Shown here: piece after piece, positions 1 through 54,480 of the stretch | Numbering within the stretch: the stretch's first letter is position 1 | Layout: each line of letters begins with the position of its first letter | From: Dictyostelium discoideum | Lineage: Eukaryota | DNA length: 64,000 nt | NCBI GenBank assembly: GCA_000004695.1 | Contig: CM000151.3 | Coordinates: forward strand, 3,648,001-3,712,000 | Direction of reading: 5' to 3' | Notes under the pieces: generated by a model | The model's input: only the letters and a program-made list of their open reading frames with translations | Databases searched by the model: none | Told to the model about the DNA's origin: nothing | Position numbers and translations under genes: made by a program

Positions 1-368
1 TCTCATTATGGTGGGTAGGTGCCATTTGTATGGTATTCGGTCAAATTGTTAGATCGGTTGCAATGGATACAGCAGGTTCAAATTTCACTCATTTGGTTCA
101 AGAAGAAAAGAGAGATGATCATGTTTTAGTTACAAATGGTATCTATCAATATATGAGACATCCATCTTATTTTGGTTGGTTTGTTTGGTCAGTATCAACT
201 CAAGTCATCCTTATGAATCCAATTAGTATTATTGGCTTTGGTTGGGCTTCTTGGAGTTTCTTTTCTCAAAGAATTGAAAATGAAGAAGATTATTTAATTC
301 AATTTTTTGGAAAATCTTATAAAGATTATAAAAAATCAGTTTGGTCTGGTATTCCAGGTATTCATTGA
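1..368 (+). CDS. icmA: Isoprenylcysteine carboxyl methyltransferase (ICMT/Ste14 family), 3' partial CDS. The frame is open from position 3 to the window edge, with stop TGA at 366-368.
   Basis: The translation ends ...YMRHPSYFGWFVWSVSTQVILMNPISIIGFGWASWSFFSQRIENEEDYLIQFFGKSYKDYKKSVWSGIPGIH. The RHPxY...EE..L...FG..Y..Y C-terminal signature is the hallmark of the ICMT family. The gene symbol is the dictyBase name as I recall it and is not verified. Confidence 0.8.
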   Translation, partial: SLWWVGAICMVFGQIVRSVAMDTAGSNFTHLVQEEKRDDHVLVTNGIYQYMRHPSYFGWFVWSVSTQVILMNPISIIGFGWASWSFFSQRIENEEDYLIQFFGKSYKDYKKSVWSGIPGIH

Positions 369-599
369 AAAATTGGAACTATAGTCTTAATTTAATAAAT
401 TTATAATAAAAAAAATATAATAAATAAATAAATAAATAAATAAACGATTTTAGAAATGTATTTTTATAACAATATAAATAGAGTTTTAAAAAAAAAAAAA
501 AAAAAAATCTTAAAAAATAAAAAAAAAATTAAAAATTAAACAGTTGATCAAAAATTTTATGTGAATAAATGAACAACCAAACCCAAAAAAAAAAAAAAA

Positions 600-642
<43 letters not shown>

Positions 643-703
643 ATTTTTTGAAAAATTTTTTTTTTAATTAATTTTTTATATAAAGTCAATTTGTCTATAT
701 TTT

Positions 704-737
<34 letters not shown>

Positions 738-909
738 CCCTAACAGTTTTTTTTTTTTTTTTTTGTTTTTACATATTTTTTCCTTGTAATAGTATATATT
801 TAAAAATAATAAAATAAAAAAAAAAAAAAAAACTGTATTAAAAAAAAAAAAAATTGTAGTATATTAGTTTATTAAATAATTTGTAATTATAATAGAAATA
901 AAAATAAAA

Positions 910-2253
910 ATGAATAACGAAGAATATGATGAAAATAATAATAATGATGTTGGTGGTGAAGAATATTATGACAATTATAATTTTGAACCAATTTGGGTAA
1001 GAGCGTTATATGATTATGATGCAGCTGACGATACAGAGATTAGTTTCAAAGAGAATGATGTTATATGTATTACACAAGATTTTGAAGATGGTTGGTGGAA
1101 TGGTGATCTCAATGGTAATGTTGGTAGAGTTCCTGCAAATTATTTCGAATATTTAAATCAAGATCAAACTGGTGATTATCAACAAGACAATTATGATGAT
1201 GCTCAAGATCAACAACAACAACAATACTACGAAGGTGAAGATGGCCAACTATATTACACTGGTGAAGATGGTCAACAATACTATTATGACGGTGGTCAAG
1301 AACAACAACAACAACAATACGATGGTGGTGATTATGATCAACAAAACCAACAAGAAGGATATGGCGACGATGGTGACGATGAAGAAGGAGGTAATATTGG
1401 TAGTGGTGGTGTTAAGAAAATCGATGAAGCTAGAAAAGAATTGTTAAGACAAAAGAGAGAGGTCTATAAAAAAGAGATGAAAGATCTTCAAGATAATTTA
1501 AAGAATCAAAATGATTGTAAAGATAGATTAGGTACCAGTGTAGAGTCATTAGAGAAGAAAAGAGATGAATTAGAGGACCATATTAGATTATTGAAACTTT
1601 TGAAATTTATAAATTTAGAAATCATAAAGACAGAGATTGATATTGATGTTGATTCCGACTCTTCAACTACATCACGTCAAACTGGTATTGCAATTACACA
1701 AGATTTAAAATCAATTAGAACTTTATTAGGTATTAAATCTTCAACATCCTCCTCTTCTTCATCATCATCATCCTCTGCAGTCGATGCACCAAAAAAACAA
1801 TTTGATTTGAAATTGGAAGATATTGAAAAGAAAGTAATTAATAATTTAAATTTATTAGATAGTTGTGATAATTTAAAGAAATCTTTATTATTAAGTTTAC
1901 AACTATTTCAAACAACTTATTTAAATGGAAATGGTATACCACCACCATCACCTACTAGAATTAAATCAATACCTACCAATTCAACAAATATACAGCAACA
2001 ACAACAACAACAACAACAACCACCACTACCACCATCCTCTTCCTCCAATACTAATACTTCAAATAATTTTTATGTTTCAACATCATCCACACCATCAAAT
2101 GCATTCTTTAGTGCACCTTCAACTCCATTATCTGATAAAGATAAAAGAAAATCTGTTAAAGAAGCTAAAAAAGAAGAAAAAAAATTAGAAAAAGAACTTA
2201 AAAAAGAAGAAAAAAAAGAAGAAAAGAAATTAGAAAAAAAAGTTTCAAAATAA
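910..2253 (+). CDS. SH3 domain-containing protein, 447 aa, single exon. It has an N-terminal SH3 domain, then a Q/Y/G-rich region, coiled-coil, Ser-rich and lysine/glutamate KEEKK repeat tail.
   Basis: ALYDYDAADDTEISFKENDVICITQDFEDGWWNGDLNGNVGRVPANYFEYL is a canonical SH3 fold motif (ALYDY...WW.G...G..G.vPsNYve). The ORF is uninterrupted, with an A-rich start context and poly-T after the stop. Confidence 0.75.
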   Translation: MNNEEYDENNNNDVGGEEYYDNYNFEPIWVRALYDYDAADDTEISFKENDVICITQDFEDGWWNGDLNGNVGRVPANYFEYLNQDQTGDYQQDNYDDAQDQQQQQYYEGEDGQLYYTGEDGQQYYYDGGQEQQQQQYDGGDYDQQNQQEGYGDDGDDEEGGNIGSGGVKKIDEARKELLRQKREVYKKEMKDLQDNLKNQNDCKDRLGTSVESLEKKRDELEDHIRLLKLLKFINLEIIKTEIDIDVDSDSSTTSRQTGIAITQDLKSIRTLLGIKSSTSSSSSSSSSSAVDAPKKQFDLKLEDIEKKVINNLNLLDSCDNLKKSLLLSLQLFQTTYLNGNGIPPPSPTRIKSIPTNSTNIQQQQQQQQQPPLPPSSSSNTNTSNNFYVSTSSTPSNAFFSAPSTPLSDKDKRKSVKEAKKEEKKLEKELKKEEKKEEKKLEKKVSK

Positions 2254-2441
2254 ACTTCTTTTTTTTTTTTTTTTTTTTAATATATATATTATTTAAATTA
2301 TTCACATATATTTTTCAATAAAAAAAATAAAATAAAAAAAATAAAAAAATGATTAAAAAAAAAAAAAAAAATTATTTTATTTATATATTTTTATTTTATT
2401 TCTTTTTATTTAATTATTATTTTATATAATTATTATTATTA

Positions 2442-3343
2442 TTATTCTTCTTCTTCATAATCAACATCTTTAATTTCTTCATCAGCAAATAATGACCAAT
2501 CAACTTGAGCAGCAACTTCTTCTAATTTTGGTTTAATTGAAGCTACAGTGATATTTGAAGCTTCTTCACCTTCCTCCATTAATCTTGAATCTGAAGCATT
2601 CAATGATGTATCTTGTTCGAATAATTGTCTACCTGTTAATTTATTTAATTGTTTCTCTTTTTTAAATGGTTTAGTTTCCTCTATAAATTTCTTTCTCCAT
2701 GCTAAAAATGCCTCTTCTGTGACTGGTGTACCTTCGAATGGTCTTTCATCATCTTCAGCCTCTGAGGAGGATGATTGTTCACTCTCTTCTAAATCTGGAT
2801 CAATATTATTCTCATCAACCCATTCTTTAATTAAACCACACAATATAAATATCATTGACATACCAATATTATTCTCTGCTTCTTGTATAACTTTACCTTG
2901 TAATTCTAAAATATCCTCTTTCTCTAATCCTAAATGAGGTATTAAATCAATCTTTGGTATTGAATTTGGATAATCAACTGAAAATATAATATCTAAAATA
3001 ATTGCAACTATTTCAATTTAAATATATGATAATTATCATATGATAATTAATAATTATTTTAATTTTTATAAAAATTTTTAAATCTATTGAATTCAATAAA
3101 AACTTACCAAAATTTGGTTCATCACCACCTGGATTTGGTAGTAATGTAATTTGTACATGATCTGAATCTATACCTATGGAAAAAAAAAAAAAAAGGGTTA
3201 ATAAGAATTTATTGGATGTTAAAAAAAAAAAAAGGAAAAAAAAAAAAAAAGTGTGGTTATTAATATAAAGGATATTTACTATTGAAATGATCCATATAAA
3301 TGGCTGATAAAGCCTCAACTTCCATATCTTTTTCTTCACTCAT
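2442..3343 (-). CDS. RWD domain protein (RWDD1/DFRP2/Gir2-like), 231 aa. Three exons: 3280..3343, 3108..3173, 2442..3007.
   Basis: The spliced protein reads MSEEKDMEVEALSAIYMDHFNSIDSDHVQITLLPNPGGDEPNFGVAIILDIIFSVDYPNSIPKIDLIPHLGLEKEDILELQGKVIQEAENNIGMSMIFILCGLIKEWVDENN... followed by an acidic C-terminal DFRP-like region (AFLAWRKKF). Donors are GTAAAT and GTAAGT; acceptors are ATAG and ATAG. Phases are consistent (1 and 1). Confidence 0.7.
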
Positions 3344-3522
3344 TTTAAGTATTTGTATATATATTGTTTATTTTATTAGATAGGATTTAAATCTAATTAT
3401 TATATTGGTTTTATTATACAATTGAAATTGAATTTTGATGTTTTTCTTTCTTTTAATATTTTACAATATTGAACCACACAACCCAAAATTGATCGATTTT
3501 TTTTTTTTTATTTTTTTTTTTA

Positions 3523-3661: not shown

Positions 3662-4474
3662 ATGAATAAAAATAAAAAAGGATTTAAACTTTTTTTTATA
3701 TTTCCAGTTATTGCATTTGGATTAGGTACTTGGCAAGTTTATAGATATGATTGGAAGAAAAGATTAATTCAGAGAGCAAAAGATAGAATGGAGGAAGATC
3801 CAATCGAATTATCAAATTCATTCATAAAGAATTTTAAAGGTAGTAGTTTTGGTGATTTAAATAAATATGAATTTAGAAGAGTATATTTAAATGGAAAAGT
3901 AATTGATAACCAATACGTCTTACTTGGACCAAGATCCATTGATGGTACATTGGGCTACTACGTCATCTCACCATTACAATTATCAGATGGCACTAGAATT
4001 CTCTTAAATAGGGGTTGGAGTGCTTCAACCCCAAAATCAAATTATAAAATTCCCTATGCAATTGAAGAATTAAAATTAATTCATCAAAAAGAAAAAGAAC
4101 AAGGACAACAACAAGGAAATCAAGAATCAATTTTATATAGATATTTTAATATTTTAGGTGTAATTAGTAAAACTAAAGAAAGAGGTAGTGCATTTACACC
4201 AACTAATCAACCTGAGAAAGGACAATGGTATAGTTTAGATGTTGATGCAATGGCTGATCAATTGAATACCGAACCTTTAATGATCAATACTATGGATGAA
4301 ACTGAAATTAATTCCAAACCATCATCATTACCAAATCCACAATTCAAAAGATTCGATAACGATGTTGAAAGTAGTTTCCATAATAAACATATGTCTTATA
4401 TTGGAACTTGGTATACTTTATCAGCTTCATTATTTTTTATTTATTTTAGATATATGAGAAAATTACCAAAATAA
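3662..4474 (+). CDS. surf1: SURF1 (Surfeit locus protein 1) cytochrome c oxidase assembly factor, 270 aa, single exon.
   Basis: An N-terminal TM helix followed by GTWQVYRYDWKKRLI (SURF1 N motif). A C-terminal TM helix with HNKHMSYIGTWYTLSASLFF (SURF1 C motif). Confidence 0.8.
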   Translation: MNKNKKGFKLFFIFPVIAFGLGTWQVYRYDWKKRLIQRAKDRMEEDPIELSNSFIKNFKGSSFGDLNKYEFRRVYLNGKVIDNQYVLLGPRSIDGTLGYYVISPLQLSDGTRILLNRGWSASTPKSNYKIPYAIEELKLIHQKEKEQGQQQGNQESILYRYFNILGVISKTKERGSAFTPTNQPEKGQWYSLDVDAMADQLNTEPLMINTMDETEINSKPSSLPNPQFKRFDNDVESSFHNKHMSYIGTWYTLSASLFFIYFRYMRKLPK

Positions 4475-4958: not shown

Positions 4959-5165
4959 ATGGATACAGTTTTAAATAATATTAATCAAAGTAGATATTTC
5001 AATGATTCAACAGCAAATACTAAAATTGAAGAAATCAAGAAGCATTTAGATAGTCCATCTGATGCTGATAAACTTGAAAGTATGAAAAAGTTAATCGCTG
5101 TATGTATATATAATAAAATAAATAAATAAATAAAATGATGATGATGATGATGATGATTAATATTA

Positions 5166-5220
<55 letters not shown>

Positions 5221-8200
5221 GATGTTATCAAAAGGTAGAGATGTTTCAGAAGCATTTCCTCAAGTTGTAAAGAATGTAATTGTAAAGAATTTAGAGATTA
5301 AGAAATTAGTATACATGTATTTAGTTCATTATGCAGAGAGTCAAAATGATAGTGCATTATTGTCAATTAATACCATTCAAAAGTCATTAAATGATCAAAG
5401 TCAAGTGATTAGAGCATCAGCATTGAGAGTTATGTCATCAATTCGTGTTATTGATATCATTGAAGTGATTATATTGGCAATTGAGAAATCTGTTAAGGAT
5501 ACATCACCATTTGTTAGAAAGGCCGCTGCTTTTGCAATTGCAAAAGTACATAAATTGGATTGTGATAAACAAGAGCCATTAATCGACCTATTGGAAATAC
5601 TCTTAAATGATACAAGTACAATGGTATTAGGTGCTGCTATCGTCGCTTTCAATGAACTTTGTCCACAACGTTTTGATCTCCTTCATCAACATTATAGAAA
5701 AATTTGTCAATTATTAGCTGATTTCGATGAATGGTCACAAGTAATCGTACTTGATATTCTTACAAAATATGCAAGATCACAATTTAGATGTCCTGATTCA
5801 ACAATGGTAATTATTAAAAAATAAATATATTAATAATTTAATTTTAATTTTGAAAGGTACTAATCTTTTTTTTAAAAAAAATAAATAAATAAATAAATAC
5901 TACCACTACCACTACCACTACCACTACCAGTACCACTACCACTACCACTACCACACCACTACCACTACCACTACCACTACCACTACCACTACCACTACCA
6001 CTACCACTACCACTACCACTACCACTACCACTACCACTACCACTACCACTACCACTACCACTACCACTACCACTACCACTACCACTACCACCATCATACC
6101 ATAATCACTATCACTATCACTATCACTATCACTACCACCATCATACCAGCATCACTACCAATAGTACTACCAATACTAATACTAAATTTAAGAATGATAA
6201 AAATATTAAACAATTTAAAAAGAAATCAAAATCATTTTATTCAGATGAAGAAGATCAAGAAGATGATGAACCAGAAAATAGTTTATATAAAAAGAAACCA
6301 TTAGAAAGAGATATGTTTGATTCAAGTGAAGAGATTGATATGGATCATAGATTATTATTAAAATCAACATTACCATTATTACAGAGTAGAAATAATGCAG
6401 TAGTGATGGCAGTAAGTTCATTGTATTTCTATTGTGCACCATCGATTGAAGCACAAAAAGTTGGTAAATCATTAGTTCGTATTTTACGTAGTGGACCAGA
6501 AGTACAATACATTACATTGACCAACATTTCCACTATGGTAACATTGAGACCATCAATGTTTGAACCTCATTTATCAGAGTTTTTCATTCATTCATCTGAT
6601 CCAGAGTATAGCATCAAATTGAAATTAGAGATATTGACTCGTTTAGCAACACCTGAAAATATTGGTAAAATCTTGAAAGAGTTCAAAGAGTATGTAAAGA
6701 ATGAAGATAAGAAATTCGTTGCAGCCACAATTCAAGCGATTGGCTCCTGCGCCTCTACAGTACCAGATGTAACCGAATCATGTATCTATGGTTTAATGTC
6801 CCTCCTATCCAATCAATCAACTGTTGTAGTTGCAGAGAGTGTAATTGTTTTAAAAAGATTATTACAATTGAATGCAACAAATGAAAAACTTGAGAAATTA
6901 GAAAAAGAAAAAGAAAAAGAAAAAGATGTCAAAGAAAATCAATCAACCATTTCAAAACATTCATCATCAAATAATTCAATTAAATATGATAATATAATTT
7001 TACATTTATCAAAACTATTAGATACACTTCAAGTACCAAGTGCACGTGCATCAATCGTTTGGGTAATTGGTGAATATTGCTATCGTGTACCATTGGTTGC
7101 ACCAGATGTATTTAGAAAATTAGTTAAATCATTCTCTGATGAACATGAATCTGTTAAATTGGAAACCTTAAATTTAGGTTCAAAATTATATGTTCAATTC
7201 ACTGATAATAATAGTACTACCACTACTGATAATAGTATACCAAATGAATTTAAAAATGAAAGAACTAAAGAAAAGATCACCTTAATGTTTCAATATGTTT
7301 TAAATTTAGCAAAATTCGATCAAAACTATGATATTAGAGATAATAGTAGAATGTTAAAACATTTCTATTTCAATACTGAGAATACTCAATCCATCAATAG
7401 TAATATCAAACAAATCGTTATCAATCAAAAACCAATTCCAACTGAAACTTCAATAAGTGAAGATAGACAACGTTTTACACTTGGTTCATTATCACATATC
7501 GTTAATCATACTGCTTTAGGTTACACCGCATTACCTGATTTCCCTGATGTTGCCCCTGATCCATCAGTTAGAGAACCAATTCAACGTTGGATTCCAAATC
7601 AACAATCACAACAACAACAACACCAACAACAACAATTAAATAATATTTTCGTTGATACTCCATTTTATTCTGATGAGGAAGAAGAAGATGAGGAGGAGTA
7701 TGATGAGGAGGAAGAGGAAGAAGAATATGAAGAACAAAATGAATATGAAGATTTCTTTGGTGAAGAAAAGAAAAATAAAAAGAAAAATAGAAAACAACAA
7801 AACTATGATGAAGATGAATATAATCAAGATATTGATGATGGTGAATATGATGGTGAAGGTGAAGTTCAAGCAGAGGATGAAGATGATTTCGATGAATTAT
7901 TTGGTATAACTAATGACGATAACAATCAAACCGCTAATGGTATTGGTGGTGGTGGTAGTGGTGAGGAAGAAATGGATAAATTTGATTTTGAAAATTATAT
8001 AAACTCCACTACCAAATCTGTAAAGAAAATATTATTAAAACCAACAATTAGTGGTGGATTAAGTATTGATTATTGTTTCATTAGAATCAGAGATAATGAA
8101 GAATTTTCATGTCAACCACGTTATAATATCATTCAATTAAATATAAAGAATCAATCTGATGAAACTTTCACCGATATCTCTATCATTAATAAAAATTTAA

Positions 8201-8594
8201 TCGATGGTGCTGATATTAGTGAATTTGATCCAATCGAATCAATTGAACCAAATCAAGCAATTCAAAAACAAATTTATGTTTTATTTAATTCAACTTCTCA
8301 ATCTTGTAAATTTGAAATTAGGTAAATTTTTTATTTTTTTATTTTTTTATTTATTACTTTTGAAAATTAAATACAAATATTAATTAAAAAATATATATAT
8401 TTTATTATTATCATTATAGCTTTAATAAAGGTAATTTCCCAGTAACTTTAACACCAATTATTGGTGAATTATTAATACCAATTGTACCAATTTATGAATC
8501 AATTAGTCAATGGAAAGATGAATTTGAAGAAGTTGGTGAATTTAAACAAGTTGATGATCAATTTGAATTTGGTGATCAATGCTTAGATAAATTA

Positions 8595-8632
<38 letters not shown>

Positions 8633-8891
8633 AAGTGGTGATGAAAATATTGGTTTAATGCCAATTTTACCAATAGTTTTAGAAGGTATTAATTTAATTC
8701 CAATAGCCTCGAATAAATTAAAATCAAAGATTCAATTTGCAAGTAAAACTTTATTAAAAGATGAAAACATTTATGTTCAAATTCAATTATTAAAACAACA
8801 ACCACCAACTGTTAATTGTATTATTAGAAGCAATGATCAAGTTGTATCTGCTCTATTACTTAAAAAATTAAAAGATGTCTTACAAAAATAA
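4959..8891 (+). CDS. ap3b-1: AP-3 complex beta subunit (beta-3 adaptin), about 1108 aa. Four exons: 4959..5099, 5222..5806, 6193..8321, 8420..8891.
   Basis: It is collinear with human AP3B1. KKLIA|MLSKGRDVSEAFPQVVKNVIVKNLEIKKLVYMYLVHYAE matches [52 protein letters not shown]...MDHRLLLKSTLPLLQSRNNAVVMAV matches FYESDDDQ...[25 protein letters not shown]. There is an acidic hinge, and C-terminal PIIGELLIPI matches PVGELLLPV. Donors are GTATGT, GTAATT and GTAAAT. The exon 2/3 junction (5806/6193) is inferred from the human alignment and is the least certain. Confidence 0.8.
5889..6170. repeat. (CCACTA)n hexanucleotide microsatellite of about 45 units, with a few variants (CCAGTA, CATCAC, CACTAT). 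It lies inside the putative AP-3 beta intron 2.
   Basis: Direct reading shows ctaccactaccactacc... uninterrupted for about 280 nt. It is unusually GC-rich for an intron in this genome. Confidence 0.9.
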
Positions 8892-9046
8892 AGAAAGAAA
8901 TTAAGTGTGAAGAAAAAGAAAAAAAAAAAAAAACCTGGAAAAAAAAAAAAAATAAAAAAAAAAAAACCTGGAAAAAAAAAAAAAATATATTAAATTATAA
9001 TAAATAATAAAATAAATAAAAATAATAAAAACCTTTAAAATTAAAA

Positions 9047-53024: not shown

Positions 53025-54480
53025 TTATCATTATTTTTTGATTTATTAACAATTTCAAATGTCGAATAAGATGGTGATAATTCACTTCGTTCATCTTTAT
53101 TATTTGAACCTTTATTATTATTATTATTACTAGATGTATTACGAGCATTTGATTTCTTTTGATTTTTTATTTCAATTTCAGATAATGAGGCATGTTTCTT
53201 TAATTTTCTTTCTTTTACAGGTGGAGTTAGATTGGAATTGGATTCATTATTACCACTGTTGTTCAATGCATTTGATTTTGATTTTGATTTTTTCATTAAA
53301 GCAAATTTACTTAGGAATCTCTCAAATATTGGTGAAGAAACTGTATGATTCTTTTGTTGGATAAATGGTGGTTGAAGAGAAGTTGTAGTTTGAATTGGTG
53401 TTGTTAATGGTAGTGATGGTGATGTTGGAGTTTTTGGTGTTTTTGGTGTTTTGGGGGTTTTTGGGGTTTTTGGTGTTTTGGGGGTTTTTGGAGTTCTTGG
53501 AGTTGTTGTGGAAACCAAGGTTGGCGATATTGGTGATTCTAATGATTGTTGACTATGATGATTATGATGATGATGTTGATCTAAACTTGATGATGATGAT
53601 GAGGGTGTTAATGGTGAATTTAAACTATTATTTGTAGTACTACCACCACTACCACTACCACTACCACTACCACTACCACTACCACTAGTACAACTATTAC
53701 TTGTGGAAGTACTATTTGTACTACCATTATTATTATTTAAACTACTACTATTACTTATACTTGTATTTGAAGAAGAAGTTGATAGAATATCAGAGGATTC
53801 ACAATTTTTTGAATTACCATCGTCAATAAATTTACTACTATTTAAAGTGGCACAAATACTACTTGATTTCGATTCAATACTATTTTTTCTATTGATTGAG
53901 ACGATTTTATTATCAGGAATATTTAATAAATTTTGTTGAACTTCCACAATCCTTTCTTTTGAAGGAGATGGTGAAGGTGAAGGTGATGGTGGTCTTGATG
54001 TCTTTTTATTAACATTATAATTTGTATTGGTAATTGATGTTGGACATGATTGATTTATCGTTGGGTCGCCATTTGATGAAAATAATTTTTGCTCACCACT
54101 AGTAGTCAAATAATTTGTAATATTTGTTGTTGATTTATGTTTTCTAGATAATTTTGGTGAACCACCACCACCACCTGAACCAATACTACCAACACTACTT
54201 GATAAACTACTATTACTATTACTATTTGATAATGGTGCAGATGGTGATGTTATTTGTTGAGGTGATGATAATGTTGATTGTGATTGTGATAATGAATTTG
54301 AAGATAATGCTAATGGTGATTGTGTTTGGATTTGTGCTTGTGATGTATTATTGTTATTATTATTATTGTTATTATTAATATTATTATTAAAATTATTTTT
54401 CGATGTTAATTGATTTGAATTTATTGATTGTATTGGTGGAGTTGGTATAACTATTTTTAAAGGTATTGGTTGTGATTGAA

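Follow-up and report, generated by a model that had tools for sequence, protein, structure and literature searches.

A probable lineage-specific hexanucleotide microsatellite in an old intron of the Dictyostelium discoideum AP-3 beta gene

The window analysed here is a 64,000-nucleotide stretch of Dictyostelium discoideum DNA with a GC content of 22.3% and, as in Dictyostelium generally, abundant AAT, CAA and poly-A/T arrays. On its plus strand lies the AP-3 beta gene, in which four exons (4959-5099, 5222-5806, 6193-8321 and 8420-8892) join to encode a protein of 1108 aa, a length that we take to be that of the curated AP3B entry as well. Intron 2 holds a tandem array of a hexanucleotide unit; the other two introns of the gene measure 122 nt (8.2% GC) and 98 nt (6.1% GC). 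The features of intron 2 and of the exons on either side of it are given below in window coordinates.

5222-5806, plus strand: exon 2, ending in ...RSQFRCPDSTM in phase 0, with these residues conserved in all orthologues
5807-6192, plus strand: intron 2, 386 nt, 35.5% GC, GTAATT...TTTAAG
5807-5898, plus strand: AT-rich 5' part of intron 2, 92 nt, 6.5% GC, with stops in all three frames
5859-5864, plus strand: upstream ACTAAT, 329 nt from the acceptor
5868-5902, plus strand: block TTTTTTAAAAAAAATAAATAAATAAATAAATACTA (T6 A8 (TAAA)4 T ACTA), its last four bases being the first four of the array
5899-5952, plus strand: array head, made of ACTACC x5 (5899-5928), AGTACC (5929-5934) and ACTACC x3 (5935-5952)
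5953-5957, plus strand: unit ACACC with a 1-nt deletion, which shifts the array register by 1 nt
5958-6089, plus strand: longest perfect run, ACTACC x22, 132 nt, G-free
6090-6186, plus strand: decayed array tail, with ACCACCATCATACC twice, ATCACT x5 (6104-6133) and ACTACCAAT motifs
6175-6180, plus strand: ACTAAT, candidate branch site, with the branch A 13 nt before the intron end
6190-6192, plus strand: 3' splice site AAG, after which exon 3 begins AATGATAAAAAT in the window, in D. cf. discoideum and in D. citrinum
6193-8321, plus strand: exon 3, starting NDKNIKQFKKKSKSFYSDEED

Analysis of the repeat with TRF revealed a single array at 5899-6176 with a period of 6, 46.8 copies, 88% matches and 2% indels. 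Its consensus, ACTACC, is the CCACTA of the original prediction read in another register. Matches to the dodecamer CCACTACCACTA with at most one mismatch number 40 over the window, where shuffling gives an expectation of 0.03, so that the head-to-tail repetition of a unit within the 1-6 nt range of microsatellites is far above chance. The array had been described as 45 mostly perfect copies; it is real, and its perfection is partial, with 33 exact ACTACC units, perfect runs of 5, 3 and 22 units (copy numbers taken from one assembly), one unit that has lost a base and a decayed tail. The core (5899-6090, 192 nt) has 50% GC and a single G, that of the AGTACC variant at 5929-5934, which is the source of the sole AG and the sole GT in the core. 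Two more 1-nt register shifts are found in the tail, which continues into ...ACTAAT ACTAAA TTTAAG. Such a decayed 3' end, together with the 1-nt indel, is what would be expected of an unconstrained simple sequence repeat (SSR). All three plus-strand frames, and not two as first reported, are open within the core, owing to a repeat unit without stop codons, and what each frame reads changes at the 1-nt deletion and again at the register shifts that follow (Thr-Thr, then Pro-Leu, then His-Tyr and so on).

In a survey of the window, 12 other non-overlapping arrays reach both 40 nt and 30% GC; each of them falls within a long open frame (87-1333 codons), and all were read as coding. The identical hexamer recurs at 53645-53687, where seven units on the minus strand encode (Gly-Ser)n in a 1333-codon open frame. 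Judged by its composition only, the AP-3 beta array would thus have been expected to be coding.

The splice sites around the array do not bear out this expectation. Every GT...AG pair in the region was enumerated, and 5807/6192 is the sole pair that leaves the conserved exon ends intact and yields an uninterrupted open reading frame across the junction, which confirms the limits first proposed for the intron (GT at 5807-5808 in GTAATT, AG at 6191-6192, 386 nt). As in U2-type introns, the sequence begins with GT (GTAATT, 5807), ends with AG (TTTAAG, to 6192) and on removal leaves the exons joined in frame with no conserved residue lost, and the resulting junction (...PDSTM/NDKNIKQF..., the slash marking the intron site) agrees with nine orthologues. 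A branch-site motif at a suitable distance from the AG is provided by the ACTAAT at 6175-6180, which is likely, judging from its sequence and position, to be the branch site now in use; in D. discoideum introns, no branch-site hexamer is more frequent than ACTAAT (18.66%; PMC2483917). The 17,300 introns of this species are 89.13% AT, and their length is 103 nt at the median and 143 nt on average, with an SD of 158 nt (PMC2483917), or 146 nt on average according to a second source (PMC3188802), in agreement with the earlier description of local introns as about 100 nt long and more than 85% AT. Intron 2 is 3.7 times as long as this median.

Readthrough from 5807 would add VIIKK and then meet a stop. 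In the upstream direction, the frame of exon 3 stays open to 5893, over 100 codons that would read Thr-Thr, Pro-Leu, His-Tyr and then Thr/Asn-rich sequence. No in-frame AG was found between the stop at 5890-5892 and position 6192, and none of the three internal AGs (5930, 6149, 6164) keeps the frame, each of them leading into frame 0 with stops downstream; use of the first would give a 124-nt intron and then a premature stop. The array thus has no frame in which it could be spliced to exon 3, and the suggestion that it might be cryptically coding fails on this point, on the 1-nt indel and on the sister-species sequence described below.

We compared the junction with that of orthologous proteins. 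A full-length protein search identified the AP-3 beta of D. cf. discoideum (94% identity) and D. citrinum (88%); the other named orthologues are from Polysphondylium violaceum, Acytostelium subglobosum, Cavenderia fasciculata and Heterostelium album, and one Logan contig and two EukProt entries bring the set to nine. Over the junction, each of these nine dictyostelid sequences has PDS[TSA][MI]/[ND]DK...KKK...SFYSD, and a Thr, Pro-Leu or His-Tyr tract at this place is absent from each of them. In distant eukaryotes, a short acidic linker suffices at the same position. A protein search with the 318-aa junction fragment returned matches of at most 51% identity and below 560 aa, with no dictyostelids among them.

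A metagenome scan with exon 2 led to one contig, L001, of 3424 nt and 29% GC, which ends in an A-run. It contains one uninterrupted 1060-codon open reading frame, collinear with the four-exon model at all three intron sites, and reads PDSSI-DDKESSNKKQKKKSTSFYSDDED at the exon 2/3 junction. Since L001 is P. violaceum-like and intron-free while the P. violaceum genome has the intron, it is best read as a spliced transcript, and would as such lend indirect support to the exon 2/3 junction at the transcript level.

The genomic comparison covered five loci (L002-L006) from five dictyostelid species, which with the window make six genomes. In all six, the intron occupies the identical phase-0 position, with the following lengths and compositions in the relatives.

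D. citrinum: 95 nt, 3.2% GC
D. cf. discoideum: 255 nt, 12.5% GC
P. violaceum: 67 nt, 16.4% GC
C. fasciculata: 89 nt, 18.0% GC
H. album: 100 nt, 11.0% GC

The shared phase-0 position and the short, AT-rich form in the relatives indicate that the intron is old and normally short and AT-rich. With a sole in-frame splice pair, nine collinear orthologues and five further genomes that have the same intron, the placement of the array inside an AP-3 beta intron is upheld.

Among the six genomes, the array is present in the window only, and the dodecamer ACTACCACTACC was not found in any of the six related loci. The exons flanking the intron are almost identical between the window and both D. cf. discoideum and D. 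citrinum, and turnover of the repeat among these close relatives appears fast, as is typical of microsatellites: the array is absent from D. citrinum and is represented in D. cf. discoideum by a related patch of 26 nt. The D. cf. discoideum intron is instead made up of (ATA)32.7, TACTAATC-T17, this ACC/ACT patch (TACCACCACTAC x2.2) and (AAC)14.7. The tail of the window's array matches the ACC/ACT patch at 25 of 32 positions, a similarity that is suggestive only, given its low complexity. That intron content is wholly different between close species supports, indirectly, the earlier claim that the array is unstable in length. At its 3' end, the D. cf. discoideum intron reads ...TAA TAA TTT AAG in the frame of exon 3, which is therefore closed, so that the open frame in the window is an accident of the stop-free unit.

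Intron comparisons were made as anchored local alignments, MAFFT on three introns being unreliable for such low-complexity sequence. Intron content is unrelated among the relatives except for the 5' part and the (TAAA)4T-ACTA block. The 5' part (5807-5898) aligns with that of the D. cf. discoideum intron, and the block at 5868-5902 is identical at 34 of 35 positions to D. citrinum 3858-3892. In D. citrinum, the closing ACTA of the shared block is the start of an ACTAAT, followed by T11, with the acceptor 42 nt downstream. This identity, taken with the D. citrinum ACTAAT, places the first unit of the array at the position of an ancestral branch-site-like motif.

Taken together, these comparisons seem to support most favorably a lineage-specific hexanucleotide microsatellite in an ancient intron of AP-3 beta, removed by splicing, a reading to which we assign a probability of about 0.87 on sequence evidence. 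We infer that replication slippage produced the array in intron 2; the expansion has its start at the very position of the ancestral branch-site-like ACTAAT and took the place of the T-rich stretch beyond it. The new ACTAAT at 6175-6180, near the decayed 3' end, would then most likely have taken over as branch site. In D. discoideum, the array would be transcribed within the AP-3 beta pre-mRNA and excised by ordinary GT-AG splicing at 5807/6192, contributing nothing to the protein.

The orientation of the repeat may explain why it is tolerated. The RNA of intron 2 is predicted to be practically unstructured, with a minimum free energy of -8.1 kcal/mol over 386 nt (z = -0.36), and an Rfam scan matched no family within the intron. 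A SNORD25 match located in exon 2 was taken as a chance hit (19.5 bits, below the gathering score of 39; E = 0.73). As oriented, the core contains one GT and one AG, against 63 GT and 30 AG when inverted. With its G-free sense strand, the unit therefore brings in neither GT donors nor AG acceptors and forms no RNA structure, which would account for its tolerance in the intron; the array is presumably neutral. The (ATA)n and (AAC)n repeats and the ACC/ACT patch of the D. cf. discoideum intron are G-free on the sense strand as well. GC-containing intronic repeats may thus be tolerated only in the orientation without sense-strand G, a hypothesis that draws on three examples.

The alternative that survives best, which we nevertheless regard as unlikely, is that the array is a functional cis-element of the pre-mRNA, putatively acting as pseudo-branch sites or as a C/A-rich protein-binding platform, so that its length would tune splicing efficiency and thereby AP-3 beta dosage. 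The repeat unit matches ACTAAC, the branch-site sequence of the yeast type, at five of six positions. It also matches ACTAAT (PMC2483917) at four of six, the start of the array coincides with the place of the ancestral branch site, and both the length of the intron, at 3.7 times the median, and its composition are far from usual. A more specific form of this idea, slightly less probable still, is that the branch-site hexamer expanded into about 30 tandem pseudo-branch sites that would compete for recognition factors or U2 pairing, with their number setting the level of splicing. If true, repeat length would give the lineage a heritable control of dosage in lysosomal trafficking, and one that mutates rapidly. 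However, a conserved intronic splicing element should be shared by relatives that share the intron, and neither D. cf. discoideum nor D. citrinum has this array, despite their near-identical flanking exons. The array is also decayed and interrupted by indels, as a repeat free of constraint would be, has no structure and belongs to no known RNA family, and has no known binding factor. The original prediction that the array could modulate the splicing of an essential trafficking gene is thus unsupported as regards splicing, given its absence from the two closest relatives, and the word essential is probably too strong. A 2008 study by Charette and Cosson, cited in PMC2632630, concerns, to judge by its title, AP-3 mutant Dictyostelium cells, and if such cells have been characterised, the gene is probably not essential for growth.

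An assembly artefact, affecting the array or its length in a repeat that is hard to sequence, is less probable still, at about half the probability of the cis-element reading. Long perfect repeats are difficult to assemble in dictyostelid genomes (PMC3188802), and the array is known from a single assembly. Yet it contains internal variants and an ordered, decayed tail between clean, unique flanks, a related patch rich in ACC/ACT occupies the equivalent place in the sister species, and a misassembly would not be expected to leave both the splice sites and the reading frame intact.

Very improbable is a coding role, present or recent, in which the array would specify a poly-Thr, Pro-Leu or His-Tyr insertion in a disordered loop of the AP-3 beta trunk, reached through an alternative acceptor just 5' of the array, the real intron being 5807-5898 only. 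That segment is indeed typical of an intron in size and composition (92 nt, 6.5% GC), and the exon 3 frame runs without a stop as far back as 5893, over 100 codons. ACT and ACC are both Thr codons, the loop varies in length among distant eukaryotes, and all 12 of the other arrays with at least 30% GC sit in long open frames. The acceptor that this route needs is nonetheless missing, there being no in-frame AG from the stop at 5890-5892 to 6192. Unlike coding repeats, in which length changes come in multiples of three, the array has a 1-nt deletion (5953-5957) and register shifts that take a single frame from Thr-Thr through Pro-Leu to His-Tyr. None of the nine dictyostelid proteins has such a tract, the homologous stretch of D. 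cf. discoideum is closed by TAA TAA in the exon 3 frame, and the three open frames of the core merely reflect its stop-free unit.

We also considered and rejected intronisation, whereby 5807-5898 would be the original intron and the array a formerly exonic poly-Thr stretch. The relatives lack the tract, the homologous stretch of the sister species has in-frame stops, and D. citrinum shows that the start of the array corresponds to intron sequence (ACTAAT), not to exon.

Least probable of all is an antisense exon or nested gene that would read GGTAGT as (Gly-Ser)n, for although one minus-strand frame across the array does read (GS)n and the same hexamer at 53645-53687 encodes GSGSGS... in its 1333-codon minus-strand frame, the minus frames here are bounded by stops inside or adjoining the array, the sole minus-strand ORF that starts with ATG encodes 49 aa of poly-Val, AP-3 beta exons and AT-rich intron lie on either side, and the relatives are entirely without the array.

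Read as a spliced-out microsatellite, the array carries little weight for biology at large. Of the D. discoideum genome, 11-14% consists of SSRs, with 1,436 of them longer than 100 bp (PMC3188802, PMC7466956), and in mutation-accumulation lines of this species indels arise at about twice the rate of base substitutions (PMC7466956). The AP-3 beta array is one more in such a genome. It does offer a clean, datable case, in which an ancient intron of 67-100 nt would have grown four-fold in a very recent lineage from a seed at a branch-site motif, and the sister lineage enlarged the same intron with entirely different repeats. The orientation rule proposed above, a G-free sense strand, is simple and testable. 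For annotation, the gene model should leave the array out, despite the downstream frame that runs open through it.

Compared with known systems, the array resembles the human intronic expansions of GAA in FXN and CCTG in CNBP in that a short unit extends over hundreds of nucleotides in an intron of a housekeeping gene. The RNA of the AP-3 beta array has no self-complementarity or structure, unlike these expansions, and the likeness is a resemblance only; pathogenic human repeat ranges are far longer. The repeat unit is identical to that of the Dictyostelium coding repeats (GGTAGT)n, or (Gly-Ser)n, and (ACTACC)n, or (Thr-Thr)n. In contrast to those hexamer repeats, the array cannot be joined in frame, carries a 1-nt indel and is absent from the orthologous proteins, and it differs from the other arrays of the window with at least 30% GC, all coding, by being intronic. 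Non-coding SSRs of D. discoideum are reportedly about 99% A+T according to the genome paper, and the array, with 50% GC in its core, departs from the typical introns of the species (89% AT). With the intronic SSRs of D. discoideum it shares a 6-nt tandem unit, perfect core runs, decayed edges and lineage specificity, and, like them, it is non-coding and would be removed with its intron. In this company, the array is an ordinary microsatellite of odd composition and no new kind of element.

In the sister species D. cf. discoideum, whose AP-3 beta protein (locus L002) is a 94%-identical orthologue, the homologous intron 2 (L002 3820-4074) has undergone an independent expansion comprising (ATA)32.7, a T17 run and (AAC)14.7. 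Intron 2 has therefore twice been a repeat-expansion hotspot, and the sense-strand units of both expansions, in the window and in D. cf. discoideum, are free of G. The window features concerned here and below are:

5100-5221, plus strand, intron 1 of AP-3 beta
5807-6192, plus strand, intron 2, with the ACTACC/CCACTA hexamer array at 5899-6176 (core 5899-6090)
5929-5931, plus strand, AG and GT dinucleotides in the array core
5948-6097, minus strand, poly-Val open reading frame across the array
8595-8630, plus strand, (AAT)12 array in exon 4
53645-53687, ACTACC-type hexamer array within a minus-strand open frame

The only AG and the only GT of the core both come from a single AGTACC variant unit. 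Splicing from the donor at 5807 to the AG of this unit would remove an intron of 124 nt, a typical size. The frame downstream of this AG reads YHYHYHYH(T)n...IIP before reaching a stop, and use of the cryptic acceptor would thus yield a truncated product or a target of NMD. On the opposite strand, the ATG-started poly-Val frame of 49 aa, taken from a mechanical ORF list, was rejected as an artefact built wholly from the array, one that could pass for a gene in an ORF caller.

A search with a 318-aa fragment as protein query returned only database matches shorter than 560 aa and missed every full-length orthologue, even 94%-identical ones, which were recovered with the full-length AP-3 beta query. 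No protein identical to the AP-3 beta of the window was found among the matches to either query. A metagenome contig from a Polysphondylium violaceum-like organism (L001; Ga0256900_1005514, 1-3424) carries a complete AP-3 beta ORF of 1060 aa, devoid of introns, together with a short terminal A-run; the contig most probably represents an assembled transcript and not genomic DNA. The Rfam match to SNORD25 inside exon 2 (5437-5513, minus strand) is below threshold, scoring 19.5 bits (E = 0.73) where the gathering score is 39, and is almost certainly due to chance.

The second hexamer array of the window comprises 7.2 copies within a frame of 1333 codons, where its minus-strand reading is (Gly-Ser)n, adjoining a PKTPKTPKT... 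repeat; one DNA unit is therefore coding there and intronic in AP-3 beta. Within the AP-3 beta gene, intron 1 is likewise built largely from simple repeats, first (ATG)7 and then (TAA)20, and is nonetheless only 122 nt long, with 8% GC. In the C-terminal exon, the (AAT)12 array is read as an Asn12 tract; when the AP-3 beta of the window is aligned with its P. violaceum-like orthologue, the latter lacks this tract. This tract is a typical lineage-specific gain of a coding repeat.
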